A program made the translations under genes and the position numbers. Below, one piece after another: positions 6,928 through 56,182 of a DNA stretch of 64,000 nucleotides (the first letter of the stretch is position 1; each line of letters opens with the position of its first letter). This stretch comes from an uncultured Gammaproteobacteria bacterium. Lineage in GTDB: Bacteria; Patescibacteriota; Patescibacteriia; Magasanikbacterales; UBA922. The notes under the pieces are model-generated. The model worked only from the letters and a program-made list of their open reading frames with translations, did no database searches and was not told the origin of the DNA. The DNA is taken from contig CAZKAD010000003.1 of assembly GCA_964550845.1 (NCBI GenBank), positions 447 to 64,446 on the forward strand, written 5' to 3'.

Positions 6928-9900
6928 ATGGCTGTCTTCTTCGCAAAAAGTCGGGACCCATTTTCAAACTTTTATCCGGTCTCATTTACTGTCGATGATT
7001 TGAAATACTCGAGTTCGGAACAGTATTTTATGGCCTCGAAAGCGAGATTCTTTAAAGATGTTGAAGCGGAGGACCAGATTATGGAAGCGGAATCTCCGAA
7101 AGAACAAAGAGAACTTGGACGTTCAGTCAAAAAGTTTGATCCAAGAGAATGGGATCGAGTTAAATTTAAAATCATGAAACAAGCCCTGTTGATTAAATTT
7201 CAACTTCCAAAGATGAAAAAGTTCCTTGTTGAGAGTCAACGAAAAGTTTTAATTGAAGCTGCACCTTGGGACGCGATTTGGGGAATTGGAATGGATGCTG
7301 ATAAAGCTGTGAATACACCCTTTCGTGAATGGGGAAAGAATGGACTTGGATTCTTATTGATGGAAGTTCGAGATTTTCTCCAAGGTAATTGGATTCAAGA
7401 AGACTTTGGTGTCTCAATGATTGGAAATTTCTATATCGGTGCACATCCAACTGAAGACCAAGCAAAGTTTCTTTTGGGAAAAGGAGTGAATCTATTTGTC
7501 TCCCTTGAGGAAAATCCAAGATATTTATCAGTTGTTGGTCAAGCATCGTCAAAAGTTTTTGCTCTTCCTACAGGAGGTATTCGAAATGATCAAGAGACAC
7601 TTGAATTTCTCGGTTGGTTACGAGATCAATATTTTCTCGGAAAAATCATTTATCTCCATAGTCGAAGAGGAATTGGAAGAACCGGATTGATTGCCAGTTT
7701 ATTTCTGAACTTGTTTCTCGGATATCAACCAAGTGATGCGTTGGATAAAGTTCGAAAATCTATTCATAGTCGAACTAATTTTAACCAGTCCTTCGGGACG
7801 TTTAAGCTTAAATTTATGCCTATTCCAGAAACTGCTTCACAAATAACTCAATTCACTCGTCTTGCCGACGGTGATAAAACCGATATTGATATGTCTGCTT
7901 ATACTCTTGAAGCAGAGAAAGCATGGATGACAAAACTTTCTGAAATTGAGCAAGACGACTTGATGACACGGGAAGATGTCGAATTGTATCAACAAATTGT
8001 ATCTCCTTCCTCTTCTTCAAAGGAAGTGAAAAAGGAAGATGAAATTAAACGTCTTGAAAAGTCTCTTAATCTTCCTGTTGGTGCAATTGAAGATGAGCAA
8101 GAAAATGACCCTCTTGCGGGTGCACTCGCAGAACTTGAACTTCGAAAGAGTGAAGAGAAGGAAGAACTTCGAAAGAGTGAAGAGAAGGAAGAACTTCGAA
8201 AGAGTGAAGAGAAGGACCCATTTGAAGCTGAACTTGAAGCGTTTGAAAATGAGGGTAAAAAAGATCCGCTCGAAGCTGAACTCGAGGCATTTGAGAATGA
8301 AGTAATCGAGCCTGACATCAAAACTTTCCTTGAAGAAGAGGCTAAAGTTGAAGTTAAACAACGAACTTCATTGACCGATCGAGATCTCGAAGAACAATTT
8401 CGACGTTTCGCTAATCAAGAACTTCATCTTCAAGCCGAGGAAGGTACATTTGTTCTTCAATCTGTCTTGAATGATATTTTCAATCGTTTTCTCGAACAAC
8501 AAAATATTCAAATTATCGATGTCGATAAGTTTGAACAAATCGCAATTCCCCTAATTGGAGAACCAGAGAAAATCGAATCAAAAATTCCCGAGTATGATGG
8601 AGATAAATATATTGAATCAAAAGTGTCAAAGTTGAATACTGGTTATCGAGTCAACTTTCGACTTCTTCCCGATGCAAATATTCGAATTACAAAAGTAAAA
8701 TCGCCAAAGCGATCACAAAAGAAGAAATCGAAAAGTGAAACTTTGTCTGAGAAAAAAGATGTTTCTCAATTGAGTCAAATTGAACCACCGAAAGAAGAGG
8801 TGAAAGAAGTGAAGATCGAGAAAAAACTTTCGTCATTTTTGTCCCATTTCTTCCCTGGCGATATTACCTTCATTCAACCGAATATCAATTTCACCGAAGA
8901 AACTTTGCATTATATGTCTCCAATGAGTAAAGCCGACAAACTCGCCGCATTACTTAAGACATATCCTCGTGCACAATTAGTTGTCGATGTTTTTGCTGGT
9001 ATTGGAGGCAATACACTTGGATTTGCTCGTGCAGGATTGCGTGTAGTCGCATATGAACGAGATCCGGAACGATTTAAAATGTTGAGAAATAACGTCCTTC
9101 ATTATCGGTTTGAGAAACAAGTGACGACGATTCGAGGAGAATTTAACCCCGGAAAAGATCTCGATATTATTCGAACTATTCAAAAGATTGAAGCAGACAA
9201 AGTAGTCTTCTTCTTTGATCCTCCATGGCTTCCATCTTTTGTCCAAAACTTTGACAAGTCACAATACATCTTAACTGGAATTACTCTTGCCGGTCAACTA
9301 CTTGAAGACATTGCTAAGAAAACTTTGCAGGAATATGGAGGATCGATATTTCATTTGCCTCCCGGTTACTCACTCAATTTGGCTGGAAGAATTGTTGATG
9401 ATAAATCTGATAACAAAGCGAGATTGATTTACTTTTTTGGCGATCAAATTCAAGCCAATATTGCCAAAGATTACAAACTGCAGATCAATTATGCAACTGA
9501 ATTTCCACGTGAACAATCCGAGGTCAAATATTCTCAAAATGAGTTAGTTGAACAACTGAAAGAAGTTGAACAACAAAAAGTGGAAGCTAAATTGTATCAA
9601 CCTCCGGTCAAAACAGTCTCGGTGGTCTTTCAAACTTTTCTGAATAAAAGCTTTCCTCGACGATCATATCAACATGAACCTTTCCATCCGAAAGCGGTTC
9701 ATAGTGGACAGCGAAAATTACTCTTGTCCGAGATTGAATTCTTGACTCGAGTTCTCTCAAAGGAAAAAACACTCGGTAAAGGCGGATCTTATACTATGCT
9801 TTACGTTGGAGCCGCGCCAGGAATTCATATTCCTTTGCTTGCAAATAAGTTTCCTGAAGTCAAGTTTATTTTGTATGATCCGGCCAAATTTGATATTGCT

Positions 9901-10542
9901 CCATCATCTCAGATCGAAATTCATCGAGAACTTTTCACTGATGAAAAAGTCGAAATGTACAAGAAGACTGAAAATTTATTGTTTGTGAGTGATATTCGAT
10001 CGACGCCGAAACAATTCGATCCAAATCAATCCGGCTTTGATTCGAGTTTTGAACAAGAGGTGATTTTTAACATGGAGCAACAAAAGAAATGGGTGACGGA
10101 ACTTCAACCACTCAGAAGTCTACTTAAATTTCGTCTTCCTTACAATGATCCTGAAAACCCTCGAGATGAACAGGAAACATTTAAATATCTTGATGGTATT
10201 CTTTTTTTCCAAGCTTATCCTCCAGAGCAATCAGGAGAAACTCGGCTTGAAGTTGGACTTCCGTTGAAAGAGACTGGTTATTTTCTTGCCCAGTATGAAC
10301 AGCAAATGTTTTATTTTAATACTCGATATCGGATTCAATCCTTCTCTCATTATTCACAATTTTACGGATGGTCTTATGATACTCTGAGAGAATACTTTAT
10401 TCTTCAAAACTATTACAAATTTCGTGGGATTATCGACAGTGATAAGAAGATCGAATATGATTTTCAAGATCACGACCGGATGGCTCACGGCCCGGAAAAG
10501 AAGATTTTTAACATTCTTCGTAACGCGGCAAAATACGGATAA
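6928..10542 (+). CDS. Multidomain RNA cap-modifying protein: NADAR (YbiA-like) domain, dual-specificity phosphatase / Mce1-like RNA triphosphatase-like domain with the catalytic Cys replaced by Ser, an acidic coiled-coil linker, a Tgs1-like cap guanine-N2 methyltransferase and a poxvirus VP39-like cap 2'-O-methyltransferase
   Basis: NADAR: FSNFYP...SSEQYFMASKARFF...LGR...W....IMKQALLIKFQ...LIEAAPWDAIWGIGMD...LGFLLMEVRDFL, which follows the YbiA consensus. PTP-like: IYLHSRRGIGRTGL, a Cx5R P-loop in which the Cys is Ser (agt at the catalytic position). Tgs1-like: VVDVFAGIGGNTLGFARAGLRVVAYERDP...FFFDPPW. VP39-like: HSGQRKLLLSEIEFLT...GGSYTMLYVGAAPGIHI...KFILYDP, compared with vaccinia VP39 FEGQKKLL..EF / VVYIGSAPGTHI. 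No guanylyltransferase KxDG motif was seen. Confidence 0.85.
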   Translation: MAVFFAKSRDPFSNFYPVSFTVDDLKYSSSEQYFMASKARFFKDVEAEDQIMEAESPKEQRELGRSVKKFDPREWDRVKFKIMKQALLIKFQLPKMKKFLVESQRKVLIEAAPWDAIWGIGMDADKAVNTPFREWGKNGLGFLLMEVRDFLQGNWIQEDFGVSMIGNFYIGAHPTEDQAKFLLGKGVNLFVSLEENPRYLSVVGQASSKVFALPTGGIRNDQETLEFLGWLRDQYFLGKIIYLHSRRGIGRTGLIASLFLNLFLGYQPSDALDKVRKSIHSRTNFNQSFGTFKLKFMPIPETASQITQFTRLADGDKTDIDMSAYTLEAEKAWMTKLSEIEQDDLMTREDVELYQQIVSPSSSSKEVKKEDEIKRLEKSLNLPVGAIEDEQENDPLAGALAELELRKSEEKEELRKSEEKEELRKSEEKDPFEAELEAFENEGKKDPLEAELEAFENEVIEPDIKTFLEEEAKVEVKQRTSLTDRDLEEQFRRFANQELHLQAEEGTFVLQSVLNDIFNRFLEQQNIQIIDVDKFEQIAIPLIGEPEKIESKIPEYDGDKYIESKVSKLNTGYRVNFRLLPDANIRITKVKSPKRSQKKKSKSETLSEKKDVSQLSQIEPPKEEVKEVKIEKKLSSFLSHFFPGDITFIQPNINFTEETLHYMSPMSKADKLAALLKTYPRAQLVVDVFAGIGGNTLGFARAGLRVVAYERDPERFKMLRNNVLHYRFEKQVTTIRGEFNPGKDLDIIRTIQKIEADKVVFFFDPPWLPSFVQNFDKSQYILTGITLAGQLLEDIAKKTLQEYGGSIFHLPPGYSLNLAGRIVDDKSDNKARLIYFFGDQIQANIAKDYKLQINYATEFPREQSEVKYSQNELVEQLKEVEQQKVEAKLYQPPVKTVSVVFQTFLNKSFPRRSYQHEPFHPKAVHSGQRKLLLSEIEFLTRVLSKEKTLGKGGSYTMLYVGAAPGIHIPLLANKFPEVKFILYDPAKFDIAPSSQIEIHRELFTDEKVEMYKKTENLLFVSDIRSTPKQFDPNQSGFDSSFEQEVIFNMEQQKKWVTELQPLRSLLKFRLPYNDPENPRDEQETFKYLDGILFFQAYPPEQSGETRLEVGLPLKETGYFLAQYEQQMFYFNTRYRIQSFSHYSQFYGWSYDTLREYFILQNYYKFRGIIDSDKKIEYDFQDHDRMAHGPEKKIFNILRNAAKYG

Positions 10543-11313: not shown

Positions 11314-11865
11314 ATGCCCGTCGATAATTACCACTGTATCTACGGCTTCGTGTTCACTTTTGAACAAATTTGGCGGTGGTTTTACCCGAATGTTAAATAC
11401 AACGATGAAGAAAATAGTGGTTGGATGATCGACTTTATTGAGTTGTTTGACAATTCATTTGTACCTCATCGACTAGAAAAGTTTTATTCATTGTTGATGA
11501 AACAATTTCCAAATCAAATGAAAAAATTGTCCCGATTGACGATGAGACGATTACCTCATAATCATTCCTTTCTTCTTCCAAATAAAAATAAATATTCACA
11601 AGTTGCGGTTGGTATCTTTGCCAATATCGAAATGGAAGGAAAGGATGTCTTCTTCGAAATCTTTTATGACAAATATTTTGACCGAATCGAAAAGATCGGT
11701 CAAATTTGCCCGGCTTTGTGCCAAACTGAATGGTTTGATCTAGTAAAACCATTCCTTGTCTCTCCTGACGAGAGAACCGATCTTTTGAATGTGCTTGATT
11801 TCTTCTCTCGAAATGACGATCCGAAATTTTTACTTGTAGGAGACGATTGTGGATGCTGTAATTAA
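11314..11865 (+). CDS. Hypothetical protein ending in GDDCGCCN
   Basis: 183-aa ORF with an octamer promoter and a convergent terminator hairpin downstream. Confidence 0.6.
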   Translation: MPVDNYHCIYGFVFTFEQIWRWFYPNVKYNDEENSGWMIDFIELFDNSFVPHRLEKFYSLLMKQFPNQMKKLSRLTMRRLPHNHSFLLPNKNKYSQVAVGIFANIEMEGKDVFFEIFYDKYFDRIEKIGQICPALCQTEWFDLVKPFLVSPDERTDLLNVLDFFSRNDDPKFLLVGDDCGCCN

Positions 11866-14138: not shown

Positions 14139-14166
14139 ATTAAACGTCCTTTTAGGACTGGTTAAA
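14139..14166. promoter_or_regulatory. Conserved intergenic palindromic element TTAAACGTCCttttaGGACTGGTTAAA; its TTA supplies the stop codon of 14162..14899
   Basis: Direct reading. The stop TAA (minus strand) lies inside the GGTTAAA flank. Confidence 0.6.
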
Positions 14167-14899
14167 TTATTCCGTAGACATACACACTACTTCCAGTTGC
14201 AAATAGTCTTCCAGAAGACTTTGACGTTACTCCCAAACTGCGAATAGGAGCTTGTGTTATTTTTAATGCCATTGGATATGTCATTACCCCGTATGCATTG
14301 GTTTCAAGTGAAGCCCATCCAACACAATCTGGAATAAATATCATTTTTGTTGTTCCAGTTGTAGCTGGATCTGAAATATATAAATTAACGGTTGCAAATC
14401 CATCATTCGGACCCGAAGGCCCTTGTGCAGAAATATCAAATTCTACGTTAGCAGTTGTATTAATTGTCGGGCCAGATCCTTGAAGCGAATATTTATTCAT
14501 AACCGTCGTAATCCCAGGTTCGTCGGGAAAAAATACTCCATATCTAAATGTGCCAGTCGTCGATAATTTCAAGTTAAATAGCACACGAAGAAAGTTATAA
14601 CCAGTCGCGTTAAATGAAAATGTTCCACTCGATACAGTTCCATTATTAAACACAAAACTGGTCAACAAATATTCACCATTGGTTCCATTTGGAGGGCCAA
14701 CCGGCCCAGTCGGTCCTGTTATTCCATTTCCAGAAGGGCCAGTTGGTCCGATCAATCCGGTTGTGCCAACTGGTCCAGGAGATCCCGAAGGACCAGTTAC
14801 TCCAGTCGCACCTCTGATAACCGGAATTAGATTTGTGAACAACGGAGACGTATTATTGCCGAGCCCGGATGTAAATTGAGAAACACGGAAAGAAGACAT
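14162..14899 (-). CDS. Collagen-like protein with GxT/GPT triplet repeats and a C-terminal globular domain shared by a fibre-like family
   Basis: MSSFRVS... N-terminus. Approx. 50 aa of [41 protein letters not shown]. The C-terminal domain ends ...[18 protein letters not shown]. Confidence 0.8.
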
Positions 14900-14957: not shown

Positions 14958-15755
14958 TTAAATTTCCGCGTGAAACGAAATTCGAGATCCAGGTGCAATT
15001 AATCCTCCACTCGAAGGTAACAAAGTAATTTTTGTAATTGCTCCAGTACTATTCCAGAAATGAACACCAGAATATTTTTGCCAATAGAAATACAAAGAAT
15101 CAGCTGGAAACTTTGACGACATTAGTACATCTTCAGAAGAAAATGTTTTTGGTATTCCTGTCACTCCATAAAGAGGAAAATCTATTTTTGCAAAACTATA
15201 GGTTCCAGTTGGGAGTGAGTTCGAAGCCATATTACCAATAAAAGCTCCAGTTAAATTTGATATGTGTAAGGTTCTTGAAATAGTATTGGAATCGTCTGGT
15301 CCGGTTGAAACTAAATAACGACATGCTGTTATATATGGGCCAGTGAGATCATTGATTCGAACCGCTAACCCTGTTCCTGTTCCAACATCAGTCGATCGAA
15401 ATGAACACAAACAAAAGATTTTTGAATATGATAGAGGGAAAGATTGAATTGATATCGAAGCTGTTGCAGAGGTAACAACTGTGGAATAAATTTGAACCAA
15501 TGCTGATCCAGAACCACTTGTGAGTGGACCGGTTGGACCGGTTACCCCAGTGGATCCAGTAGCTCCCGCTGGGCCCGCAACTCCATTGGGTCCAGTTGGC
15601 CCCGTTATTCCTGGAGCTCCAATTGATCCGACAGGCCCGGTTGGCCCGGTTGTTTCGGCATAAATTACTTCGGCTGAAATGGAATATACGGTTGGAACGT
15701 ACGGTTCAAGCAAAGAAACAGTTTTTGCAGCTACTCGAAACGAAGGACGATCCAT
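14958..15755 (-). CDS. Collagen-like protein (GPTGP repeats) with the family C-terminal domain
   Basis: Start set at the internal Met ([11 protein letters not shown]...) to match the paralog N-termini (MSFRVS) and to avoid overlap with 15782..16471. Repeats are [43 protein letters not shown]. Confidence 0.75.
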
Positions 15756-15781
15756 TGATATTTTGCTTCCGAATAAAATTT

Positions 15782-16471
15782 TTAATCGAGAAAATATAGC
15801 GATATTTTTGAGCCTGTCGCAAAATTTCCTCCGCTCACACTGAAAAAGGTAATATTTGACACGCCTGTAGACAATGCAGTTGTAATTAGAACATTTTCGA
15901 TGGAACCTGTATTTGAATCGACCCAACTGCCATGTTCACCAAACATCGTTAATGCATTCGACACATTCCGAGAAAGATTTGAAATGGTCAAGGTTTGAAC
16001 ACCAAAAGCTGTGGTACCAAGACCAGGGGTTTTATACGCATATCCGTATGTTGACGCAAATGCAAATCGAGTTGCATATGTAGATCCAGACAAGGAATAA
16101 TGTACCACATTGACATAAGGTCCAGAACTATTGTTGACTGTAACCCCAACTGGAGAACTGATCACATCCGAGAAACGAGTACACAACAAGGCTCGAATCG
16201 ATTTTATCGGCGAAGGAAATGATGTAAACGAAATCGAACTTGTCGCTCCCGTTAGCGTAACAGAACCAATCACCGACGAAACGATTGCAGCCACCGGGCC
16301 GGTTGGACCAGTTATAGCCGAACCAACTGATCCGGTTGGGCCTGTAGCTCCGGTTGGACCTGTCGCAACTTCTACAAAAGCCGGTCCTGTAGGTCCGGTT
16401 GGGCCGGTTGGGCCTGTAATTGGTAAAACAAGTCCAGGAGGACTGATTGAACTTGACACACGGAATGACAT
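15782..16471 (-). CDS. Collagen-like protein ([11 protein letters not shown] repeats) with the family C-terminal domain
   Basis: [59 protein letters not shown]... The C-terminus [21 protein letters not shown] contains the GNFATGS family motif. Confidence 0.8.
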
Positions 16472-16574: not shown

Positions 16575-18950
16575 ATGTCTTTCACTATTGTCACTGGACT
16601 GATAGACATTCGTCGAGGAGAATGGAACAGTTATTTTCGTCGGAGCATCCAAAATTACTTTGCCTCAATGACCAAAGGGGTTCTTCGATACGATCATCCA
16701 ATGATTGTATTCATTGAGCAAGAATATTACCCTCAAGTTGTCGAACTCCGCGAAGAGTTTCCAAATACTCGGATTATTCCGGTTACATTGTCGCAAACTT
16801 ATTTGTATCCACAAAGAGACCGTATCGGACAGATTCAATCTTCTTCGGAATACAAAAGTTTACTGCGAGAAGAAAGCAAAGTTAATCCAGAGCATTGGTG
16901 TCCGGACTATGATATCGTCACAATTCAAAAGGCATGTTGGATGCGAGATGCAATTCGAGAAAATCCTTTTTCAACTGAATACTTCGTCTGGATTGATGGT
17001 GGATATAGCAAAGGAACACTTGGTCTGACCATTCCAGCTACACTTGATTTATCTCCAATTCTTCAAATGATGGATTCGTCAAAAATCTTCTTTCAAGTTC
17101 TCGGAGAATCTCCTCGGAATCCATCCTTATTTCCTCTTGACATGACTCCGCTCGACTATTTCAAGAAGAATGATACTTTTATTTCCGGAGGACTTTATCT
17201 TGCAGGTAAAGCAAGTTTACCAATTTTTGATTATTACATTGAATTGGTTGATAAATGTTTACAACAAAATCTGATTGATGATGACCAGTTTTACTGGTTT
17301 CTCTGTATGAATTGTTCCAGATTTGCTCCATCATTTGTAGCTTATTCAATCGATGGTTGGGGTGAAGTATTTGAATTATTGAAAGCTCTTTCATTACCAG
17401 GTCAAAGAAAAATTTCCTCTTCAGCAGAAGAAAAATTTGTCCAAGTCAGTCAGCCAAGGATTGCAGTTCTTCTCACTGGCAATATTCGATCTTGGAAATA
17501 TATTGATAAGGCTTGGATGAAAAATTTTGATTGCTATGCAATCACCTATCCGAATAAATATATGTATCATCCTTTTATTCAATCTCAAATTGGAACATTT
17601 GATAAGAAGATTGATCCAACAGAAGAACTTCGAGACTTTCCTTTTAAGAAGATTTGTACAGTCTCTCAAGATCGAGATGACGAAATGGAAGCAAAAATGC
17701 ACCCTGAAATGAAAAAGATTTATCATGGTTATTATCAATATCATACTTCTCTCGAAGCTTTCCATCAAATATCAGAATTAAATCATTATGATTTTGTGAT
17801 TCGCACTCGATTTGATTTACAACCTCCTCCTGGATTGTTGGACAATTTATATCGAATCCTTTCAGTGTTTGAACCGACATTGTTACTCAACTCACTTGGG
17901 GATTTCTCCAATAAACCCAATCTTCCAATCCAAACCAATTTGAATGAACTTCAAGGAATTGCGGCGAAATCTATTTTGTATCCTCCTGAAACAGCTGCAT
18001 TCTATACTTACAATCCAAATACTATTCCGTCAGATACAGTTTTTATGGGGCCGCCCGAGATGATAAAGAAGTTGTTAAGTTTTGCAATTTCATCATATTT
18101 TCAACCAAGTTCTGAAAATTGTTGGAAAAATCCTCCTCATGGAATCATTCGTGAATTTATCTTGAAAAATCAAATCACTACACATGTTGCCAATTTTGGA
18201 ACGATTTTCAGACCACTTCCTCTTGAAGATCTTCCACCAAGAAAGGAGACTCTTTCAATTGGATTGCTGATTTCTGGGAATCTTCGGGGAAAATCACTTG
18301 CCTTGCCTCCACAATATCTTTTGACTAAACATCATATTACCGTTTATTTTGCTTCTTGGATTGATGAAGATTTTCTTTATGCTATTCAAGATCTCGAGCG
18401 TCTATCAAAACAAGGAATTGAATACCGTCTGATGTTGTTTCCACGTTCAAGTTCTTCGAGAATTGTTGAAAGTAGTTCCTCTACAAATTATCAGACTTAT
18501 CCCGGAATCTGTGGAGAGAAAACATTCGGCAATGCTTGTTCAATGTGGTATCTGTTTGAACAAGGATTGCAAGCAATTAAAACTTCGGAGCAAAAATGCG
18601 ATTTGATTATTCGCTGGCGTCCAGATTTGATTCTCGATTCGAATTGTATGCTTGATGATGAATTGATGTATCAAAGTGTTGAAAAGAATTGTCTGATGAT
18701 GCCGAAGTGGCATGGAAAATTTGGAGATGTCAATCGGCAAATGATGGATCAACTTTTCTGGGGTCCCGTCGAATTGATGCAAAAACTTTGTCTTTATTCG
18801 AGTCGAAAAGAACATTCCGAACAATCCGAATTTGCCCATACCGGAGAAGGGATGCTTGCGAGAATGATTGAAAAGGAAAAGATTTCCCTCGAACGTTTCC
18901 CAGCTCATTATGGGCTAAGGAGGAATGATCGTGTTGAAAAGATTGTTTGA
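16575..18950 (+). CDS. Large hypothetical protein with three internally repeated modules; possibly carbohydrate-modifying, by its position between the collagen-like genes and a glycosyltransferase
   Basis: 791-aa ORF. The repeated module starts are FTIVTGLIDIRRGEW, IAVLLTGNIRSWKY and IGLLISGNLRGKSL. Function is not established. Confidence 0.7.
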   Translation: MSFTIVTGLIDIRRGEWNSYFRRSIQNYFASMTKGVLRYDHPMIVFIEQEYYPQVVELREEFPNTRIIPVTLSQTYLYPQRDRIGQIQSSSEYKSLLREESKVNPEHWCPDYDIVTIQKACWMRDAIRENPFSTEYFVWIDGGYSKGTLGLTIPATLDLSPILQMMDSSKIFFQVLGESPRNPSLFPLDMTPLDYFKKNDTFISGGLYLAGKASLPIFDYYIELVDKCLQQNLIDDDQFYWFLCMNCSRFAPSFVAYSIDGWGEVFELLKALSLPGQRKISSSAEEKFVQVSQPRIAVLLTGNIRSWKYIDKAWMKNFDCYAITYPNKYMYHPFIQSQIGTFDKKIDPTEELRDFPFKKICTVSQDRDDEMEAKMHPEMKKIYHGYYQYHTSLEAFHQISELNHYDFVIRTRFDLQPPPGLLDNLYRILSVFEPTLLLNSLGDFSNKPNLPIQTNLNELQGIAAKSILYPPETAAFYTYNPNTIPSDTVFMGPPEMIKKLLSFAISSYFQPSSENCWKNPPHGIIREFILKNQITTHVANFGTIFRPLPLEDLPPRKETLSIGLLISGNLRGKSLALPPQYLLTKHHITVYFASWIDEDFLYAIQDLERLSKQGIEYRLMLFPRSSSSRIVESSSSTNYQTYPGICGEKTFGNACSMWYLFEQGLQAIKTSEQKCDLIIRWRPDLILDSNCMLDDELMYQSVEKNCLMMPKWHGKFGDVNRQMMDQLFWGPVELMQKLCLYSSRKEHSEQSEFAHTGEGMLARMIEKEKISLERFPAHYGLRRNDRVEKIV

Positions 18951-20005: not shown

Positions 20006-22171
20006 TTATGCGCTGAGATAAACCCACCTTGCTCGACTAAACATAAATCGAGCTGTACCAAGACTATCTAAAAGGCTTGCAGTTGGTATTGAAATTACAC
20101 TTCCTCCTGCACCTGCAAGATTGCTCCCGTTTTCAGTCGTCAATGTCAATAAATTACTTCCCCCAGTAATTATTACAATCATCATACCTTCATATGCTAA
20201 AGTTATAGGCAATATCAACGTGTAACCGTTAACTGTATCGACATTTTCAAAGTATGTTCCTATCATACTTCCAACTCCTAGATTGAATGTTCCTCCTCCT
20301 TCCGGAATTAAAACTAATCCGTGTGCCCATGTTTTTAATGCCGGTAAATGATCAACGATTAAAGAACTTCTGTAATAATTACTTCCGGTTCCAAATGATT
20401 TGTCATCTTGATGTAAAATAGTCCATCCAGAAGCACTTGTTACATTCACTCGATTACATCCTATTAAACATAAATTTCTTGAATCTGTGGAAGTGCACCC
20501 TGATGAATAAGCCATGAATACACCAGTAGAACGCAAACAGAAACCCGACGGACTTGACAGAAGCATACAACTATCCGATCCAGAAGCTCTTGATCCAGTT
20601 GCCAGCAAAATAGAAACAAATTTGGATGATAATATATTTGAATCGTGCGCGAATAAGATTGAACAATTAACTGGAGAAGGATTTGTTATTGGGTTTATTG
20701 TCGAAACAGCTTCTGGACGGGCATTTAAATTCATTCTGTTATTTGCACCTCCTACAATTAACGAATATAACCCAGCATGCATTGTCGATCCAGATGATAC
20801 TAAAATACCACAGTTTCTCGGGGGTATTATAGCATTCCAATCAAAATTATTGACTAGAATGCTATCTAGAGTTAGTCTATTACCGAATCCTCCCATGATA
20901 AAAGAATTTGAAGATCCTGACATTAAAGATGAAGGTGAAAATAAAATTGCAGAATTATTGCATCGAGCTGAAACAGTCGCATTATTCGAATGTGCAATTA
21001 AACAGTCAGTCGATCCTGACATAATAGAACTTATCGAGCCAATAGATGTGGCTCTTATTGCATTGGTTACTACAGAACTTTCTCCTCCGATTAAATTGCT
21101 TGTATCCGATCCGTTCATTGTTGTAGATTTTGAGCCGATGTTAGAACTATGAATTGAAGAACCGACTGAGCTAGCATATGCTAATAGATTAATATTTTCA
21201 GAAGAAGTAACTGTATTGAATTCTCCGGCAATCATCGAATATGAAGATTGATTAACAGTATTTTGTAGCCCTGATACCACACTTGAACCAGTTCCTCCGG
21301 TCGTAATTGTTCCGGAAATTCCTCCTAATATCGATCCTATTGAAGCTTGATTAACGGGAGTTCTACCAAAAGAGATTGATTCTGTATTTGATAATAGTCC
21401 TTGAGGTCCAGTGACTCCCGTCGGTCCTAAATTTCCTTGAACTCCTTGAACTCCTTGAACTCCTTGCGGTCCAGTTGGTCCAATTGGGCCTTGAACTCCT
21501 TGAACTCCTTGACTTCCATTCGCTCCCGCGGGTCCAGTTGGACCTGTCACACCCTGAATTCCTTGACTTCCGTTTGCACCTGCAGGACCAGTTGGTCCGG
21601 TTGCACCCGTAGGACCATTCGCTCCCGCGGGACCAGTTGGTCCGGTTGCACCCGTGTTAGTTGAGAATCCATCTGCTCCCTGAGGTCCAGTTGGACCTGT
21701 CGCTCCCGCAGGACCATTCGCTCCCGCAGGACCAGTTGGTCCGGTTGCACCCGTATTGGTAGCCGAGCCTGGAATTCCTTGCAATCCGGTTGGACCTGTA
21801 ACTCCGGCTACTCCTTGAGGTCCTGTTGGTCCTGTCGCTCCTGTGCTTGTAGCAGAGCCTGGAATTCCTTGAGGTCCAGAAGGTCCAGTTGGACCTGTTA
21901 TTCCAATTATTCCCTGAGGTCCAGTTGGTCCGGTTGCTCCTGTGCTTGTAGCCGAGCCTGGAATTCCTTGTGGTCCAGTCGGTCCTAAATTTCCCTGTAC
22001 TCCTTGAATTCCTTGTACTCCTTGTGGACCAGTTGGCCCAATTGGCCCTTCAGGACCCTGAGGACCTGTGGCTCCTGTACTTGTTGCAGAACCGGCAGGC
22101 CCTGTTGGCCCAATGCCAGCGCCGAGAAGAAGTAAAGGAGTATAAGAATTAAGGTTAATAATTCTTGACAT
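20006..22171 (-). CDS. Large collagen-like protein with approx. 250 aa of Gxx/GPT triplets at the N-terminus and a Ser/Thr/Asn-rich beta-rich C-terminal region; fibre-like
   Basis: [49 protein letters not shown]... and so on, followed by an approx. 450-aa S/T/N/G-rich region. Confidence 0.8.
21400..22130. repeat. Coding collagen triplet-repeat DNA (GGTCC/AGTTGG periodicity)
   Basis: Direct reading. The periodic 9-nt codon pattern generates the spurious antisense ORFs 21437..21664, 21547..21750 and 21779..21988. Confidence 0.85.
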
Positions 22172-25100: not shown

Positions 25101-26270
25101 ATGAAGATCATTGGTATTTCAGGTGGTGCCGGAACGGGAAAGGATTTTCTCCTTTCACAATTGTTTATTCCAATGCTGACTCGTGGAAAACCTTACGCAA
25201 TGATGGCTTTTGCCGATCACTTTAAAATGGAATGTATCGTGACAAAAGGATTAGATCGAGCCAAGGTGTTCGGAAGAAAGGATATTGAGACGAGAAAAAT
25301 TCTCCAGATTAAAGGTACAGAAGAAGGGCGGGACATCTACGGAGGTGATTTCTGGGTTCGTATTCTTCGTGAACGAATGATTCAATATCAAGCGAGAGGA
25401 ATCGAATATTTCTTTATTACTGATGTTCGTTTTCCTGAAGAAATTGCATTTGTGCGAAGTCAAGGAGGAGTAGTAATTAAAATTAATGCTCCTGATCGAT
25501 ATCTCGAAGCGATGAGAATTGAAAACGGTAATGATCCGTCGGTAGTTCAACATCGATCTGAAACATCTGTCAAAGAAGAAAAATTCGACTTTACGATTAA
25601 TAATCGATTGACTGATACTGATGTAGCCGATCAAGCTCGAGAAATTGTTTTGATTCTTCGCGAGAGATGGAAATATCAATGCACCGTGTTTTGCGATCTT
25701 GATGACACTCTGGTTGAATGTAATCGTCATTACAAGGAGATTATTGATCAAGTACTTGACAAAATACTGATTGCATATCCTCAGCTTGATCGAAATTTTC
25801 TTCGCTCGAAGTTTCTTGCCGAAGAACATTTAATTGGAGAATTATTCTTCTCTCGAGAAGCTTTTGCAGTCTCTTTGAGTAAATTGGGTCCTCCTGATGC
25901 TCTTGCTTTCACAAGAGAAATTTTCTCTCTTGGAATGAGCGTTCATCAATCTGAGTTTAATCTATTGCCTAGCGCAAGAGAAAATTTATTTACTTTAAAT
26001 AGGAAATTTCATCTCGTGATCACTACAGTTGGAGATCCAGTTGATCAAGTTCGAAAATTGTTTAAAAATGGTCTCTATGGTTTCAAGCTAGAATGCACCA
26101 GCAAAAAAGATGTCGGTTTTTTCCGGAATATGATCGAAAAATATCCATCGAAGCACTATGCTGTAATTGGAGATTCAATTCATGCTGATATTTTACCGGC
26201 AGTCAAAGCTGGTGTTCTTGATATTCATCACATTGAGAATCACAATTTCGGACAACTTCGGTTTGAATAA
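25101..26270 (+). CDS. Fusion of a T4 gp1-like deoxynucleoside monophosphate kinase (N-terminus) and a HAD-superfamily phosphatase (C-terminus)
   Basis: N-terminus MKIIGISGGAGTGKDF (P-loop), compared with T4 dNMP kinase MKLIFLSGVKRSGKDT, plus ITDVRFPEE...GGVVIKINAP. The C-terminus carries HAD motifs I (CDLDDTLV), II (VITTVG), III (K) and IV (GDSIHAD). Confidence 0.65.
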   Translation: MKIIGISGGAGTGKDFLLSQLFIPMLTRGKPYAMMAFADHFKMECIVTKGLDRAKVFGRKDIETRKILQIKGTEEGRDIYGGDFWVRILRERMIQYQARGIEYFFITDVRFPEEIAFVRSQGGVVIKINAPDRYLEAMRIENGNDPSVVQHRSETSVKEEKFDFTINNRLTDTDVADQAREIVLILRERWKYQCTVFCDLDDTLVECNRHYKEIIDQVLDKILIAYPQLDRNFLRSKFLAEEHLIGELFFSREAFAVSLSKLGPPDALAFTREIFSLGMSVHQSEFNLLPSARENLFTLNRKFHLVITTVGDPVDQVRKLFKNGLYGFKLECTSKKDVGFFRNMIEKYPSKHYAVIGDSIHADILPAVKAGVLDIHHIENHNFGQLRFE

Positions 26271-32644: not shown

Positions 32645-33511
32645 TTATTCATCTCTCACAACTGAAAGAAAATTTAGATGATCAACTACGCAGGCAGCAG
32701 CATTGAAATGTCCTCCGCCTCCAAATTGCTTAGCAATTGCCGAACAATCGACTTTGTCCTTTCCGCGAAAACTGACTGAATATCGCCCATTAAAAGTTTT
32801 CGAATAAAGTACGACAAAATCAATATTATATTGTCTATTCAGAAAGTCTCCAAGGTCACTTCGAAAAGCAGCTTCACATTCTCCAACCAAAACGTTATAT
32901 ATTTTTTGATCGAACGTCAAAGTTGCTCGAACAAACTTTTTAGCCAGTTCTTCCAGCACAAGTTGTTGTCGTCGAAGCAATTCTTTTCCATCTCGAATAA
33001 ATTTATCCAAATTCCAATATTGATGAAGAATTTGGATGTCGACTGGAGTTGGACTTGAAGCAAGAATAACCGCGTTGATCGCCTTTGATTCGTGAAGTTG
33101 AAATTTCCATAGATCTCGATCTCCGATATAATCAATAATTTCGGGTCTTTTCTTTCCAGGGAAGAAATAATCCCAAGTTAATTGAGCTCCACTTCGATCG
33201 AGATCGAAAATAAAATTAGTTTTTGTTTTAATCAATTCTGATTCGTTAGCTGTCTTATGATGATCAATTACAGTTACTTTTTTGGCTCGACAAATTAATT
33301 CTTCCATTACTTTTGGTTCAAAAGTGAGATCGAGAAATAAAATTCTCTGACCATCGACAAAAGAAGGACAATCTTTTGTATTGTAGGGAAAGCCGAGAAT
33401 TTCAACTTTGACTTTATTTTCGTCTGCCCACTTTTGAGCGATCCATCCGGATGCAGCTCCATCATAACAAGGCGAATGATAAAGAATATAATCAAACTCT
33501 TCAATAGTCAT
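32645..33511 (-). CDS. DHH-family phosphoesterase (NrnA/RecJ-like, with a DHHA1 domain)
   Basis: Motif I ILYHSPCYDGAAS, motif III VIDHHK and the DHHA1 motif FGGGGHFNAAA. Confidence 0.7.
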   Translation of the reverse strand: MTIEEFDYILYHSPCYDGAASGWIAQKWADENKVKVEILGFPYNTKDCPSFVDGQRILFLDLTFEPKVMEELICRAKKVTVIDHHKTANESELIKTKTNFIFDLDRSGAQLTWDYFFPGKKRPEIIDYIGDRDLWKFQLHESKAINAVILASSPTPVDIQILHQYWNLDKFIRDGKELLRRQQLVLEELAKKFVRATLTFDQKIYNVLVGECEAAFRSDLGDFLNRQYNIDFVVLYSKTFNGRYSVSFRGKDKVDCSAIAKQFGGGGHFNAAACVVDHLNFLSVVRDE

Positions 33512-42205: not shown

Positions 42206-43198
42206 TTAATCAAATATTTTTCGAGAAATTTCAACCAATTCGGCATCATGTTGAATCATTTTGCTCAATTCTTCTCGAAAAGATACTTTTTGCGCAGCCT
42301 TGACCGGAAGATATTGAACAAACTTTTGCTTATAAGCAATTCGAATCCCTTGTTCAAGAAGTTGATGGTATAAAATACCTTGTTTAAAGGTCTTAAACTC
42401 TTCTTCATGTCCGGAAAGAATCAATTTGAATTTTAAATTTTGTTCTGGTTTGAGTAATTGAATTACATTATGATCAAGAGGTAAACTGGCATGAATAGTT
42501 TTCTTCCTTGGAGGATAAATGTTAACTGGAATTATTTCTTTAGTCTCAAGTCGATATTCAGTGAGTAGACAATCTTGAGTCTCTCCAAATGAAACTTGCA
42601 TTGAAGAACCAGTATAATGCAAATTGGGAAAAGGTGTTTGACGGTCGTGAATATGACCAGAGATCATCAAAGGATACTTTTCATCCCAATCTTCAACATT
42701 TTCTGCGACAATAGCACCCATTTTCACTTTATTAAATAATTGATGTCCAAAGAAAAGATCAAAATTTTCAATCTTTTCACCAGAGACTTCAACTGCTTCT
42801 CGAAATCTCCCATCTGGCAGATATGGCATCATGCATATGTTATATTTTTTGTCTTGATGGAAAAGTTCAACTTTAGTTAGACGATCTACAATTTGATGAT
42901 CTTTCTTCCATGTTAAATAAGGATGGAGATCTGAGAGAAATTGCGCATTGTTTACATACTCATGATTGCCAACTAGAACATAAGTCGAAGAGTATTTTTC
43001 GCAAAGTTGTACATATTCGAGCATCTTATTCAGACAGAGAGTATGTAAAGTTTCATGTGTATGAAGAGTGTCACCGAGGATAATAATCAATTGATATTTT
43101 GATTGACTCAAATGTTTCTCAAGTTGTGTAAGAAAGACATTAATTTCTGCAAGATTACTCGGTTGAATATGAAGATCTCCAAGAGCCAAAATACTCAT
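42206..43198 (-). CDS. Calcineurin-like metallophosphoesterase
   Basis: Motifs ALGDLH, ILGDTLH, GNHEY and SGHIHD. Start set at the internal Met (MSILALGDLH), which removes the overlap with 43227..43496. Confidence 0.7.
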   Translation of the reverse strand: MSILALGDLHIQPSNLAEINVFLTQLEKHLSQSKYQLIIILGDTLHTHETLHTLCLNKMLEYVQLCEKYSSTYVLVGNHEYVNNAQFLSDLHPYLTWKKDHQIVDRLTKVELFHQDKKYNICMMPYLPDGRFREAVEVSGEKIENFDLFFGHQLFNKVKMGAIVAENVEDWDEKYPLMISGHIHDRQTPFPNLHYTGSSMQVSFGETQDCLLTEYRLETKEIIPVNIYPPRKKTIHASLPLDHNVIQLLKPEQNLKFKLILSGHEEEFKTFKQGILYHQLLEQGIRIAYKQKFVQYLPVKAAQKVSFREELSKMIQHDAELVEISRKIFD

Positions 43199-43226
43199 TT
43201 TATTTCTCAATTGAGAAACAAAACGT

Positions 43227-43496
43227 TCAATTTTTACGAAACGAATTGTACCATTCGCGAAAGACATCTCGGACTTCGGTGTCACTAAGTTTTGCTAACT
43301 CCTCTTTTGAGATGTATTTGAGAAATACCTTCCGGAGATCTTCTTCGGATAAATATTCAAATCCGACAGTTCGATCACGCTTTTTTAATCTTTGATATCT
43401 TTGTTCAATCGCAAACAAGGCTTCTGTTTTTGTATTGAATGGAAGCGTGATTTCAGACAAAATTTCTGGACTTCCTTCATCCTCAAATGATGCCAT
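43227..43496 (-). CDS. Hypothetical small protein
   Basis: 89-aa ORF with ordinary composition. Confidence 0.45.
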   Translation of the reverse strand: MASFEDEGSPEILSEITLPFNTKTEALFAIEQRYQRLKKRDRTVGFEYLSEEDLRKVFLKYISKEELAKLSDTEVRDVFREWYNSFRKN

Positions 43497-44032: not shown

Positions 44033-44881
44033 TTAGTTTGAAGCACTCGCAACAGTCTCGACAACAGCGGGAGCTGCAACCGAAGCACTTGCCGCTGGAT
44101 CGGCAGGGGCACTCGAAGCAGGGGCACTCGAAGCACTCGCGGCGGCAGCAACACTGGCAGGAGTAGCCTCAAACACGTTCGCCAAAGCCTGTTGGAGATT
44201 GCAATAGGTCAGACGATCACCAGCGGATCGTCGCAACAAAACGGCCAAGGTTTGATCAAGAGTGAAAAACTTCTTTTCCTTTTGGTCCTTGAGACCATTC
44301 TCCTTGATGTACTTACAGAGGAGTTGAGAAATCTCAATACGAGACATCTTATCTCCATGAGGACGCTTGGCGAAGTCAGCCATTGCGTCAGTGACCAATT
44401 GCAACTTTCGGAAACCTCCATTGGGGTTAGAAGTAGGTCGTCGAGTCTTCTTTCGAGAGCTGGTCAACAATCGAGTGGTATCACTTTGAATCTTCTTGAC
44501 ACGAGAACCAATTTGACGCAATAGACGAGATCCAGTAGGAACCGTCGACTTCGGTTGTTGCTCCTTTCGCTCGGCAATTGCCTTCAATTCATCATCAACC
44601 AACTTGAGCACCTCAGCAAAAGCAGCACCCAAAGTGGCCTCAGTAATTTCACGTCTCTGACGAGTCTTCTTCTCCGGAACAGCAGGAGTGGCGGGGACGG
44701 GAACATAAGTAGGGACACCATTAACAATTTGAACTACATAGGTTTGTTGAGGGGGGACGGGAGCAGGAGCCGCAGCTACAGGAGCAGCCATCACAGGGAC
44801 CGCAGCAACGGGAGCGGCCACGGCAACGGGAGCAGGAGTCATAGCAACTTGAGCAGACATTTGAAGTTTTGAGTTTTGCAA
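44033..44881 (-). CDS. SWIB/MDM2-domain protein with an Ala/Pro/Val-rich N-terminus and an Ala/Ser-rich C-terminus
   Basis: MSRIEISQLLCKYIKENGLKDQKEKKFFTLDQTLAVLL, compared with the SWIB consensus SRTEVVKKLWEYIKENNLQDPKNKRKIICDEKL. TCAATTTT lies 47 nt upstream, at 44928..44935. Confidence 0.7.
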   Translation of the reverse strand: MQNSKLQMSAQVAMTPAPVAVAAPVAAVPVMAAPVAAAPAPVPPQQTYVVQIVNGVPTYVPVPATPAVPEKKTRQRREITEATLGAAFAEVLKLVDDELKAIAERKEQQPKSTVPTGSRLLRQIGSRVKKIQSDTTRLLTSSRKKTRRPTSNPNGGFRKLQLVTDAMADFAKRPHGDKMSRIEISQLLCKYIKENGLKDQKEKKFFTLDQTLAVLLRRSAGDRLTYCNLQQALANVFEATPASVAAAASASSAPASSAPADPAASASVAAPAVVETVASASN

Positions 44882-49769: not shown

Positions 49770-49822
49770 AAAATTGATTAAATTTCTGATTTTTGTTAAT
49801 CAACAAAAATCAATTAATAGTA

Positions 49823-50770
49823 ATGTCCTCAAAGAAAATCGAATTTGAGAGAGGAGTTCCTCGAACTGAGTTTCTCTTTCAACTTGAAGCTCTGACAAGA
49901 GCTGCGAAAGGATTTCGAAAAAGAGCATTCACCAACGCAATTGAATCACTGAAGGGAATCTCAAACGAACTCCTCTATTACAACGATCTTCATGAATTGA
50001 AGGGATTTGGAGAAGGAATGTTAAATCGGTTTCTTGAATATCAGTCAACTGGCCAACTCAAAGAGCTAATTTTTTCTGCCGAAGAACAAGAACGCAAGCG
50101 AGTACTCGATCTTTTTCAAGGTATCTATGGAGTTGGAGAAGTTACTGCAACTGTTTGGTATGAGAAAGGTTTGCGTTCACTTGAAGATTTGATTAAATTC
50201 AATATTCCCTTGACCGATCATCAACGAGTTGGATTGTATTATTACAATCAAATTAATTCGCGAATTGAGCGAAAAGAGATTGATGAATTTAACCAACAAC
50301 TTCAAAAGAAAGTTGTTGAGTTTAATCAAGAAAATAAGGTACAAATTGAAATGAAAATATGTGGTAGCTATCTTCGAGGTAAAACGACTTCTGGTGATAT
50401 TGATGTAATCGTTCGAGAAAAGAATGATCAGTTACCTTGTTTAATTGATAGTCTATTGAAATATTTATATCCACTTGTTCGACATATTCTTGGTCAAGGT
50501 AATGTTAAAATTTTGACTCTTGGAGGATCAACAGATATCCATCGAAGAATCGACTTTGAACTCGTTGAGAATGCAAGATGGCCATTTGCCTTATTGTATT
50601 TCACTGGTTCAAAAGATTTTAATCGACAAATGAGAGAGATTGCAAAAAAGAAAGGTCTTCTTCTCAATCAACGAGGCTTATTTTACGGCAATCAAGAATT
50701 TCTTTACAAAGAAGAAAAAGATATTTTTGATGCCCTCGGAATGACTTACTTATCTCCTGAACAACGATAA
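49823..50770 (+). CDS. DNA polymerase family X (Pol beta-like)
   Basis: GIYGVGEVTATVWYEKGLRSLEDL (HhH), CGSYLRGKTTSGDIDVIV (nucleotidyltransferase motif; compare Pol beta GSFRRGAESSGDMDVLL) and FALLYFTGSKDFNRQMR. Start taken at MSSKK (49823), 46 nt downstream of AAAATTGA. Confidence 0.85.
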   Translation: MSSKKIEFERGVPRTEFLFQLEALTRAAKGFRKRAFTNAIESLKGISNELLYYNDLHELKGFGEGMLNRFLEYQSTGQLKELIFSAEEQERKRVLDLFQGIYGVGEVTATVWYEKGLRSLEDLIKFNIPLTDHQRVGLYYYNQINSRIERKEIDEFNQQLQKKVVEFNQENKVQIEMKICGSYLRGKTTSGDIDVIVREKNDQLPCLIDSLLKYLYPLVRHILGQGNVKILTLGGSTDIHRRIDFELVENARWPFALLYFTGSKDFNRQMREIAKKKGLLLNQRGLFYGNQEFLYKEEKDIFDALGMTYLSPEQR

Positions 50771-54376: not shown

Positions 54377-56182
54377 ATGCCTCTTCGCAAACTGGCTTTC
54401 TATGTGAATCAACTTGTTTCGACCTCTCTAAATGATTTCTTCTTGAATTGTCTCAAGGAAATTCAAGAACAGACAAAATCTAATTCGGCGAATCTTCGGG
54501 TCTTTAACGGTCCGACAATTCAAACCTCAACAGATTCAATTGAAACAAATATTCATTCGGAGAAAGCAATCATTACGCGATCTATTTATTTTGACGAAAA
54601 AGAATCATGGATACCCTTATTATCTGGAGATAAAGTCTGTGGTCTAATTGGCTTACTCAGTCCAAAAGAGCGTCCAAATCAGTTTGTTGAACAACTAATC
54701 AACTTAATTGTTGCTCGAATTCTATCGATCAAGAAAGAATTACCAAATGATTCTTTTATCTCGAACATGAGTCATGAATTGAGAAATCCTTTGAACGGGT
54801 TACTGGGATATCTTCAAATTCTTGAATCATCGGGGTTAAATTCTGCTCAACAAGGATATCTCTACTCGGCACAAAAATGCGGTTTGAGTTTAATTCGAGT
54901 CGTCAACGATATCTTAGATTACTCAAAACTAATGTCAGGTAAAATGAAGTTAAACGTACAAATTACCAATTTGTATGATTTACTTGGTTTTGTCGAAGAA
55001 ACTCTCCATATTTCAATCCAAGAAAAAGGACACACTTTTACCCTCTTTTTTCATCCAGATGTCCCAAAGATGATTTTAACCGATTCTCAAAAATTAGCTC
55101 AGATTTGTATTAATCTGCTAAGTAATGCAATTAAATTCACACCGGCGAAAGGAAAAATTAACTTTGAAGTAAATCTGATGATCAAAGAAAAAGAATATCT
55201 TATCTTTAAGATTGCCGATACTGGTTGTGGCATTTCAAAAATTCAATCGGATGAATTGTTTCGAACTTTTACTCGACTTCATCATTCAAGAGAAGAGGGA
55301 ACAGGGCTTGGATTAGTTATTTCGAAAAAACTAACCGAATTGCTCTCAGGAACTATTCGTCTTGAAAAATCTTCATCTGAAGGTTCGGAATTTGTTTTTG
55401 AAATTCCACTTCAGAGAGCTCAAGAAGTTCGAAGTTCTCAACTTGGATTTAAGAAAGAAGTTTGTTTATTTGTTTCAGAGAAAGTTCAAACAGAATTAAA
55501 TCCACTGCTATTACGATGGGGAATGAAAGTATTTAATGTTCAATCTTTTTCAGAACTTTTAACAATCTTGAGCAGTTATGTATATGATTTTGAACTTGTC
55601 ATTCTTGAAGATGGAGAAAAAGAATTTGAACAAAATTCGAATAAGATTTGGGAAATTTGTCCAAAAATTCCAATTATACATGCCTGTAAAATCTTACCTC
55701 AAAAGAAGAGTGACTCATATTTTCATCTGCTTAATTTTACTCCAACAGAATTGTACAATTGTATTGCAAGGGCCTTGGAAAATTCTCTCTATTTGAAAAA
55801 GAAAAATTCGATTCGACTTGATCTGAAGAAAAAGATTTTGATTGCTGAAGATGATCCAAGTGGAAGGGAAATTTTGTCTAGATTACTCCAATCAATTGGT
55901 TTCTCGGAAATTGATTGTGCCGAAGATGGTCTTCAAGCCTTGAATATGATTCAAAAGAAAAGTTATTCTTACTTATTCATTGATTTGAAAATGCCGGTTA
56001 TTGACGGGTATGAAGTAATTACCACAATAAATAAGAAACCAAATAAGACAATGAAATTAATTTGTGTTTCAGCATCTGTTACAGATGAAGATAAACAATT
56101 TTGTCAAAAAGCATCTGTTCCATTTCTTGCAAAACCGGTTCAATTTCGAAATCTACAAGACTTGATGGTTTCATTGAGTTAG
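54377..56182 (+). CDS. Hybrid sensor histidine kinase: N-terminal sensor region, HisKA, HATPase_c, a degenerate middle domain and a C-terminal receiver (REC) domain; soluble
   Basis: H-box MSHELRNPLNGLLGYLQIL. N box LLSNAIKFT. G1 DTGCGI. G2 GTGLGLVISKKL. Receiver: ILIAEDDPSGREIL...LFIDLKMPVIDGYEV...LAKP. No TM helices were seen. Confidence 0.85.
   Translation: MPLRKLAFYVNQLVSTSLNDFFLNCLKEIQEQTKSNSANLRVFNGPTIQTSTDSIETNIHSEKAIITRSIYFDEKESWIPLLSGDKVCGLIGLLSPKERPNQFVEQLINLIVARILSIKKELPNDSFISNMSHELRNPLNGLLGYLQILESSGLNSAQQGYLYSAQKCGLSLIRVVNDILDYSKLMSGKMKLNVQITNLYDLLGFVEETLHISIQEKGHTFTLFFHPDVPKMILTDSQKLAQICINLLSNAIKFTPAKGKINFEVNLMIKEKEYLIFKIADTGCGISKIQSDELFRTFTRLHHSREEGTGLGLVISKKLTELLSGTIRLEKSSSEGSEFVFEIPLQRAQEVRSSQLGFKKEVCLFVSEKVQTELNPLLLRWGMKVFNVQSFSELLTILSSYVYDFELVILEDGEKEFEQNSNKIWEICPKIPIIHACKILPQKKSDSYFHLLNFTPTELYNCIARALENSLYLKKKNSIRLDLKKKILIAEDDPSGREILSRLLQSIGFSEIDCAEDGLQALNMIQKKSYSYLFIDLKMPVIDGYEVITTINKKPNKTMKLICVSASVTDEDKQFCQKASVPFLAKPVQFRNLQDLMVSLS

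Follow-up and report, generated by a model that had tools for sequence, protein, structure and literature searches.

The 64-kb stretch of DNA analyzed here (the window) carries on its forward strand an open reading frame (ORF) of 1204 amino acids (6928..10542), in which the ORF list and Pfam delimit a NADAR domain, a dual-specificity phosphatase (DSP) domain with serine in place of the catalytic cysteine, an acidic linker, a TGS-like methyltransferase and a VP39-like 2'-O-methyltransferase. The DSP domain is probably a lineage-specific pseudophosphatase, selectively retained as a binder of a phosphate-bearing ligand or as a scaffold. A pseudophosphatase kept for a non-catalytic role had been proposed in the initial annotation of this DNA, and it is still the best reading: the domain keeps the protein tyrosine phosphatase (PTP)/DSP fold while the residue essential for catalysis is replaced, the change of cysteine to serine is fixed, and the core of the domain evolves under purifying selection, with a ratio of non-synonymous to synonymous substitution rates (dN/dS) of 0.066. 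Residue numbers given below are those of the 1204-residue ORF, and positions of the type His90 to Asn141 follow the numbering of the family alignment. The ORF product is identical to a protein (P0015) encoded on a 65,864-bp NCBI contig.

Fold and P-loop of the phosphatase-like domain

The DSP domain spans residues 161-313 (7408..7866, + strand) and was assigned as a divergent member of the PTP-SAK family from weak Pfam matches, an AlphaFold2 (AF2) model and Foldseek comparisons; the somewhat shorter span given to it initially, 7408-7830, corresponds to residues 161-301 and lies within the same phosphatase-like domain. Pfam returned only sub-threshold matches over residues 167-284, to PTP-NADK, Tc-R-P and PTP-SAK. 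In a phmmer search of the PDB the domain matched SsoPTP (E = 1e-5), with the dipeptide HS aligned with the HC of the HCx5R loop, and the top-scoring chain was the engineered variant SsoPTP C96S. A profile built from the domain and its relatives retrieved archaeal PTPs, ShufPTP and DUSP23/VHZ-type structures with E values of 1e-12 to 1e-13. The AF2 model, computed from 82 sequences, has a mean predicted local distance difference test score (pLDDT) of 85 and a predicted template modelling score (pTM) of 0.83, and Foldseek placed it at template modelling (TM) scores of 0.72-0.76 to Tk-PTP, DUSP23/VHZ and ShufPTP in the PDB with a probability of 1.00. The presence of a phosphatase-like domain in the fusion protein is thus upheld by phmmer, the profile, AF2 and Foldseek, and the domain is predicted to have the alpha-beta fold of the PTP/DSP superfamily with its P-loop between the central strand and a helix.

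The signature H-C-x5-R-(S/T) of this superfamily is incomplete in the window, given that the histidine, the arginine and the threonine are present and serine replaces the cysteine. The degenerate loop reads HSRRGIGRTG and is encoded at 7657..7686 (+ strand) by CAT AGT CGA AGA GGA ATT GGA AGA ACC GGA, as had been read at first. Ser245 (AGT, 7660-7662) occupies the position of the family cysteine and Arg247 (AGA, 7666-7668) that of a family glycine. In PTP-fold enzymes the thiolate of the loop cysteine forms the phospho-enzyme; Cys-to-Ser mutants are essentially inactive, still bind phospho-ligands and are used as substrate traps.

That the true codon is one for cysteine and the serine a product of faulty sequencing or assembly has a probability close to nil. 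The nearest distinct ortholog (P0003, 342 residues, 54% identity), which consists of NADAR and DSP only, reads HCKGGIGRTS with the cysteine codon TGT, and one base change suffices to turn TGT into AGT. The initial annotation held that it would fall if orthologs carried cysteine and this genome an error; the former is the case for the 54%-identity ortholog, the latter is not. It would also have fallen had structure prediction shown no PTP fold, which the AF2 model and its Foldseek matches contradict. The loop HSRRGIGRTG was found in all ten distinct protein sequences of close relatives (at least 90% identity; NCBI, ENA, JGI/IMG and Logan) that cover it, P0015 being one of them, and none of the ten contains a frameshift or a stop. 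The codon itself reads AGT in the window as well as in four further assemblies that come from different samples. Among these, strain L007 has diverged from the window to a synonymous distance (dS) of 0.53; over the 11 codons that surround the loop, its five differences from the window are all synonymous. The agreement of five assemblies, including one with synonymous changes flanking the loop, excludes a sequencing error. Going from TGT in the ortholog to AGT in the window takes one T-to-A substitution, which has become fixed in the window lineage. A search with the full-length protein returned only two near-identical relatives.

Active-site losses and selective constraint

The window domain scores 16.2 bits (E = 0.011) against the PTP-SAK model PF22784, below the gathering threshold of 27 bits; the scores are 21.9 bits for P0003, the ortholog of the sister lineage, 55.9 bits for the next relative, P0016, and 40-66 bits for other relatives. 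P0016 (975 residues, 36% identity) carries the loop HCKGGIGRTG and is matched by the window domain in phmmer with E = 4.9e-13, and through it the predicted homology of the window domain to the PTP-SAK family holds transitively. As a separate observation, P0016 is a metagenomic, probably giant-virus protein in which NADAR and a cysteine-bearing DSP are fused to an NAD-dependent DNA ligase (adenylation, OB and HhH domains) and a BRCT domain; the NADAR-DSP module has thus been recruited both to a DNA-end enzyme and, in the window, to cap enzymes.

An exhaustive search of 1.84 billion representatives yielded only three clusters at E < 1e-10, and a profile search collected 81 family members, 20 of which also carry NADAR (PF08719) in either domain order. 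Structure searches of BFVD showed that the NADAR pairing was already annotated in metagenome-assembled genomes (MAGs) of giant viruses (Marseillevirus LCMAC201 and Pithovirus LCPAC101), and the pair occurs in such MAGs as well as in a chytrid, Geranomyces variabilis. The window ORF, with NADAR directly upstream of the DSP domain, shows the same association. Among the other PTP-SAK relatives examined, none is paired with capping enzymes; judged by this distribution, the conserved partner of the DSP domain is NADAR and not the methyltransferases.

Conservation was counted in the 79 family members that lie outside the clade of the window and P0003. His90, Cys91, Gly93, Gly94, Arg97 and Asp130 are present in 79 of 79, Arg128 and Arg133 in 78, and Asn141 in 76; a C-terminal motif, F-x-P-x-P-E-T-x-x-Q, is nearly invariant. 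The window domain keeps 17 of the 25 conserved in-domain columns, and hence does not carry the full set of residues that are invariant in PTP-SAK proteins. It retains His244 and Arg251 along with the loop glycines, and in addition Arg128 and the FxPxPET..Q motif; lost are Cys91, Gly93, His95, Gly107, Arg125, Asp130, Arg133 and Asn141. The losses of His95, Gly107, Arg125, Asp130 and Asn141 are common to the window lineage and P0003. Three substitutions are confined to the window lineage, namely Cys91 to Ser, Gly93 to Arg (the codon is GGA in P0003 and AGA in the window) and Arg133 to Gln; positions 130 and 133 are now Asn284 and Gln287. According to the alignment, the window lineage is the only member without the cysteine among the approximately 80 PTP-SAK relatives examined. 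The position of the general-acid aspartate of SsoPTP is Thr215 in the window and Ser, Asn, Pro or Thr in the family, never a conserved Asp, and it may be the invariant Asp130 that acts as the general acid of PTP-SAK proteins.

Directly after the Arg133-to-Gln position, the window lineage has gained a lineage-specific insertion of seven residues, SFGTFKL (residues 288-294; 7789..7809, + strand), at a site where all 79 family members and P0003 show a gap. The inserted loop is modelled by AF2 with pLDDT below 50, and in another strain (P0002) the same site, at residues ~285-300, bears an additional tandem duplication of seven residues (FNQSLGT); from these sequences, the loop appears to be an indel hot spot.

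Selection was estimated by the Nei-Gojobori method between the window and L007. The DSP core (residues 165-285) has accumulated 32 synonymous and 10 non-synonymous changes, which gives the dN/dS of 0.066 quoted above (binomial p = 3e-13 versus neutrality). In 60-codon windows across residues 211-300, around the loop, the value falls to 0.023-0.030, in the range of NADAR (0.032) and of the TGS-like domain (0.033), with the VP39-like domain at 0.008; the acidic linker (residues 331-450) reaches 0.17-0.25, and residues 151-240, which form the N-terminal half of the DSP domain, 0.12-0.16. The loop region is therefore as constrained as the intact enzymes, and the DSP domain is under strong purifying selection with no decay. 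Accelerated divergence of the DSP domain was considered and rejected, since its identity between the two lineages is 54-56% and that of NADAR 55%.

Gene fusion and genomic context

In the sister lineage (L001) the NADAR-DSP protein is the product of a separate gene of 342 codons that ends 33 bp before a gene encoding a TGS-like plus VP39-like protein of 945 residues. Both genes have the same orientation, the flanking synteny is kept, with the P9 gene upstream, and the window protein aligns colinearly with a concatenation of both sister products. Since these neighboring genes are still apart in the sister lineage, the fusion to the methyltransferases is, by this comparison, recent, and both the gene fusion and the Cys-to-Ser change map to the branch that leads to the window lineage. 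Scans of IMG/VR and one JGI metagenome scan revealed no lineage between 54% and 92% identity that would put the two events in order. With the NADAR-DSP alignment, all that IMG/VR yielded were NADAR genes that stand alone and have no DSP in their neighborhood, and with the DSP-only alignment it gave no matches; apart from the sister contig, which was already known, the JGI scan contributed nothing but distantly related DSPs. Within the 64-kb window there is neither a second DSP nor another HCx5R motif that could supply the activity.

Upstream of the DSP domain, the NADAR domain (residues 8-151; 6949..7380, + strand) is apparently intact (PF08719, E = 1.1e-41, 143 bits). A model of NADAR and DSP together has a pTM of 0.75, which is weakly consistent with the two domains forming one unit. 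Downstream, the acidic and partly repetitive linker (7867..8847, + strand) has its counterpart in two parts of the sister locus, the C-terminal tail encoded by the NADAR-DSP gene and the N-terminal region encoded by the methyltransferase gene. Around 8100-8320 (residues ~390-460) it contains acidic tandem repeats, three copies of EELRKSEEK and two of DP(F/L)EAELEAFENE, whose copy number varies between P0001, P0002 and the window. The predicted TGS-like cap guanine-N2 methyltransferase domain (8848..9507, + strand) was identified by PF09445 (E = 6.3e-11) and has the motifs VDVFAGIGGN (motif I) and DPPW (motif IV); its match in the PDB is human TGS1 (trimethylguanosine synthase, 3egi/3gdh, E = 1e-10). 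The predicted VP39-like cap 2'-O-methyltransferase domain (9673..10539, + strand) was identified by PF01358 (E = 2e-29), has candidate K-D-K-E residues in GQRKL, SDIRS, LKFR and GETRLE, and matches vaccinia VP39 in the PDB (E = 9e-11).

The gene content of the contig, which comprises a PBCV-type P9 minor capsid protein, domains of unknown function specific to nucleocytoplasmic large DNA viruses, collagen-repeat proteins, a family-X DNA polymerase and kinases, points to a giant-virus-like (Nucleocytoviricota-like) origin. Other genes of the window include one for a hybrid histidine kinase (54377-56182, + strand; HisKA, HATPase_c and response-regulator receiver domains), three for collagen-triple-helix-repeat proteins on the opposite strand (20006-22171, 14958-15926 and 14162-14899) and, near these, one for an HtrL/YibB-family protein (16575-18950). 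A family-X DNA polymerase (49793-50770), a SWIB/MDM2-domain protein (44033-44881), a DHHA1-domain protein (32645-33511), a fusion of deoxynucleoside monophosphate kinase and HAD (25101-26270) and a calcineurin-like phosphoesterase (42206-43285) are also encoded. Two genes downstream of the methyltransferase gene, the sister locus has a Nudix gene (11737-12267 of L001); the window counterpart (11314-11865, 183 residues) has no Nudix signature obvious by eye, and for the equally sized genes that L007 and L008 have there, no Pfam match is on record. An argument based on a cap-metabolism operon was dropped, as the window has no conserved counterpart of this Nudix gene.

Possible roles and comparison with known systems

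The comparisons above trace the domain to an ancestral module of NADAR and a PTP-SAK-type cysteine phosphatase that lost the residues of its catalytic site stepwise. The first losses, Asp130, Arg125 and Asn141 among them, date from the ancestor that the window lineage shares with the sister lineage; later, in the window lineage, the nucleophilic cysteine was changed to serine (TGT to AGT), the invariant P-loop glycine to arginine and Arg133 to glutamine, and the seven-residue insertion was gained. On the same branch, read-through into the adjacent downstream gene fused the module to the TGS-like and VP39-like methyltransferases. The fold, the P-loop arginine, the backbone glycines and the F-x-P-x-P-E-T-x-x-Q motif were retained. 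The resulting domain would not turn over phosphoesters through a cysteinyl-phosphate intermediate and would be kept for binding or scaffolding, because three further family-invariant residues are lost and purifying selection is strong. Most likely, its anion-binding loop would still capture a ligand that carries a phosphate, as in engineered Cys-to-Ser trapping mutants; alternatively or in addition, it could be a structural partner of NADAR within the multi-enzyme protein. Crystals of the serine variants SsoPTP C96S and TpbA C132S with bound phospho-ligands indicate that such variants of this fold do bind them. Candidate ligands are an ADP-ribose-derived phosphate, a nucleic-acid end and the cap triphosphate; among these, the recurrent NADAR partner and the fusion to an NAD-dependent ligase point to nucleic-acid ends or to phosphates derived from ADP-ribose or NAD. 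This agrees with a published contextual theme in which ADP-ribose-releasing domains are coupled to phosphatases of the rhodanese-phosphatase superfamily (PMC9503650).

Several points weigh against a retained pseudophosphatase. That activity has been lost is deduced from what is established about the enzymology of PTPs. The additional arginine of the loop, together with the strong constraint, could mean that the chemistry was changed and not lost. Since the cysteine-bearing sister protein already lacks the invariant Asp130, the module may have changed its function before the cysteine disappeared. Finally, selection was measured on essentially one deep strain pair, the window clade versus L007, and the N-terminal half of the domain is less constrained than the rest.

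Among the alternatives, the one with most in its favor, unlikely though we judge it, takes the domain for a degenerate RNA 5'-triphosphatase of the metazoan/baculoviral type whose retained task would be binding of the (tri)phosphate at the mRNA 5' end and positioning of the two cap methyltransferases. The Cys-to-Ser change and the methyltransferase fusion arose on the same branch, the sister lineage already has the two genes side by side in one orientation, and BVP and PIR1 are among the weak matches of the domain. RNA triphosphatases of this type likewise have no Asp at the general-acid position, as is the case at Thr215 and in the whole family. Nevertheless, BVP is matched with E = 0.047 by sequence and appears at rank 20 in Foldseek (TM 0.67), PIR1 is matched with E = 0.11, and neither the sequence nor the fold searches showed a specific affinity to the Mce1/BVP/PIR1 branch over generic DSPs. 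An RNA-triphosphatase-type ancestry is accordingly not borne out: the true relatives are PTP-SAK proteins, whose partner is NADAR and, once, an NAD-dependent DNA ligase, and none of them is associated with capping enzymes. Positioning of the methyltransferases on an RNA 5' end, as the initial annotation proposed, would be compatible with the timing of the fusion, yet it is somewhat awkward because the cap N2- and 2'-O-methyltransferases both act on RNA that is already capped and has no free 5' triphosphate.

It is quite improbable that the domain is still an enzyme, either with Ser245 as the nucleophile or with the extra-arginine loop carrying out a different reaction. The constraint on the loop (the 11 codons without a non-synonymous change and the low dN/dS of 0.02-0.03), the conservation of His244, Arg251 and the loop glycines, and the newly gained Arg247 are what such an enzyme would display; on the other hand, Cys-to-Ser changes reduce the activity of PTP-fold enzymes by orders of magnitude, trap mutants are themselves among the matches of the domain, and the invariant Gly93, Asp130 and Arg133 are missing as well. 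We know of no natural enzyme with the PTP fold that uses a serine nucleophile. The opposite extreme, a decaying relic that merely separates NADAR from the methyltransferases and has no function of its own, has little more to recommend it. The loss of eight of 25 family-conserved positions, a PTP-SAK score of only 16 bits, the indel-prone loop at residues 288-294 and the relaxed N-terminal half would fit decay; what contradicts it is the low dN/dS of the core, a P-loop region that evolves like the intact enzymes and more slowly than the true linker, a fold predicted with high confidence, and ten sequences with uninterrupted reading frames.

A more specific scenario concerns the guanine N2 of the cap. 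TGS-type enzymes methylate this atom. Characterized NADARs release ADP-ribose that is attached to the N2 of guanine, in DNA as well as in RNA (PMC11543638, PMC11833690). NADAR (6949-7380) and the predicted TGS-like domain (8848-9507), which belong to one polypeptide, possibly address the same atom, and this coincidence of their chemistry suggests a scenario of cap protection. The four-domain protein would both protect and modify the cap guanine N2: the dead loop would clamp the triphosphate bridge of the cap or a terminal phosphate, NADAR would strip ADP-ribose imposed by the host from the cap or the 5'-proximal guanosine, and the TGS-like and VP39-like domains would then methylate N2 and the 2'-OH, respectively, rendering the viral mRNA refractory to host defence based on ADP-ribosylation. 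We regard this as a long shot. Were it true, the lost phosphatase turnover would be adaptive, since an active phosphatase would deprive the other domains of their substrate, and defence by RNA ADP-ribosylation would, speculatively, be linked to viral cap modification.

The sister giant-virus lineages constitute a natural experiment, with cysteine and a stand-alone gene on one side and serine, further losses and the cap-methyltransferase fusion on the other; their comparison could reveal the normal role of the widespread NADAR and PTP-SAK pair and the reason why a dead version was kept. For annotation, the domain should not be labelled an active phosphatase or an RNA triphosphatase. Natural pseudophosphatases are already known as a kind, and the window domain probably joins them.

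The closest known system is the PTP-SAK family itself (PF22784, "Swiss Army Knife protein, DSP-PTPase phosphatase domain"), whose homologous domain is often fused to NADAR, as it is in the window; the Marseillevirus LCMAC201 protein, annotated as "NADAR domain with protein tyrosine phosphatase", and those of Pithovirus LCPAC101 and G. variabilis show the same pairing. The core loop H-x-x-x-G-x-G-R and the F-x-P-x-P-E-T-x-x-Q motif are common to the family and the window. In contrast, the 79 PTP-SAK proteins examined have HCxGGxGR, Asp130 and Arg133, whereas the window lineage has HSRRGIGR, Asn130, Gln133 and the seven-residue insertion, falls below the Pfam threshold (16 versus 27 bits) and is fused to two cap methyltransferases.

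Beyond the family, BVP (1yn9), PIR1/DUSP11 and the N-terminal domain of Mce1 resemble the window domain in the superfamily fold, in having no classical general-acid Asp and in their occurrence in viruses and in a capping context; they differ from it in that the similarity is marginal, the catalytic cysteine is present and there is no association with NADAR. The engineered traps SsoPTP C96S (2dxp), crystallized with a bound phosphopeptide, TpbA C132S (4r0t), crystallized with phosphotyrosine, DUSP7 C232S and DUSP1 C258S carry the identical Cys-to-Ser change at the equivalent site of this fold; their active sites are otherwise intact, while in the window a loop glycine and two other invariant residues are also changed. 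MK-STYX/STYXL1 is a natural Cys-to-Ser pseudophosphatase (PMC2873733), and STYX, in which the cysteine is replaced by glycine, is among the Foldseek matches of the window domain (2r0b). Both keep the DSP fold with a replaced nucleophile, as the window domain does, and are maintained by selection for a non-catalytic role, as it probably is; unlike it, they are animal signalling proteins of independent origin that bind phosphoproteins or G3BP and have no link to NADAR or to cap enzymes.

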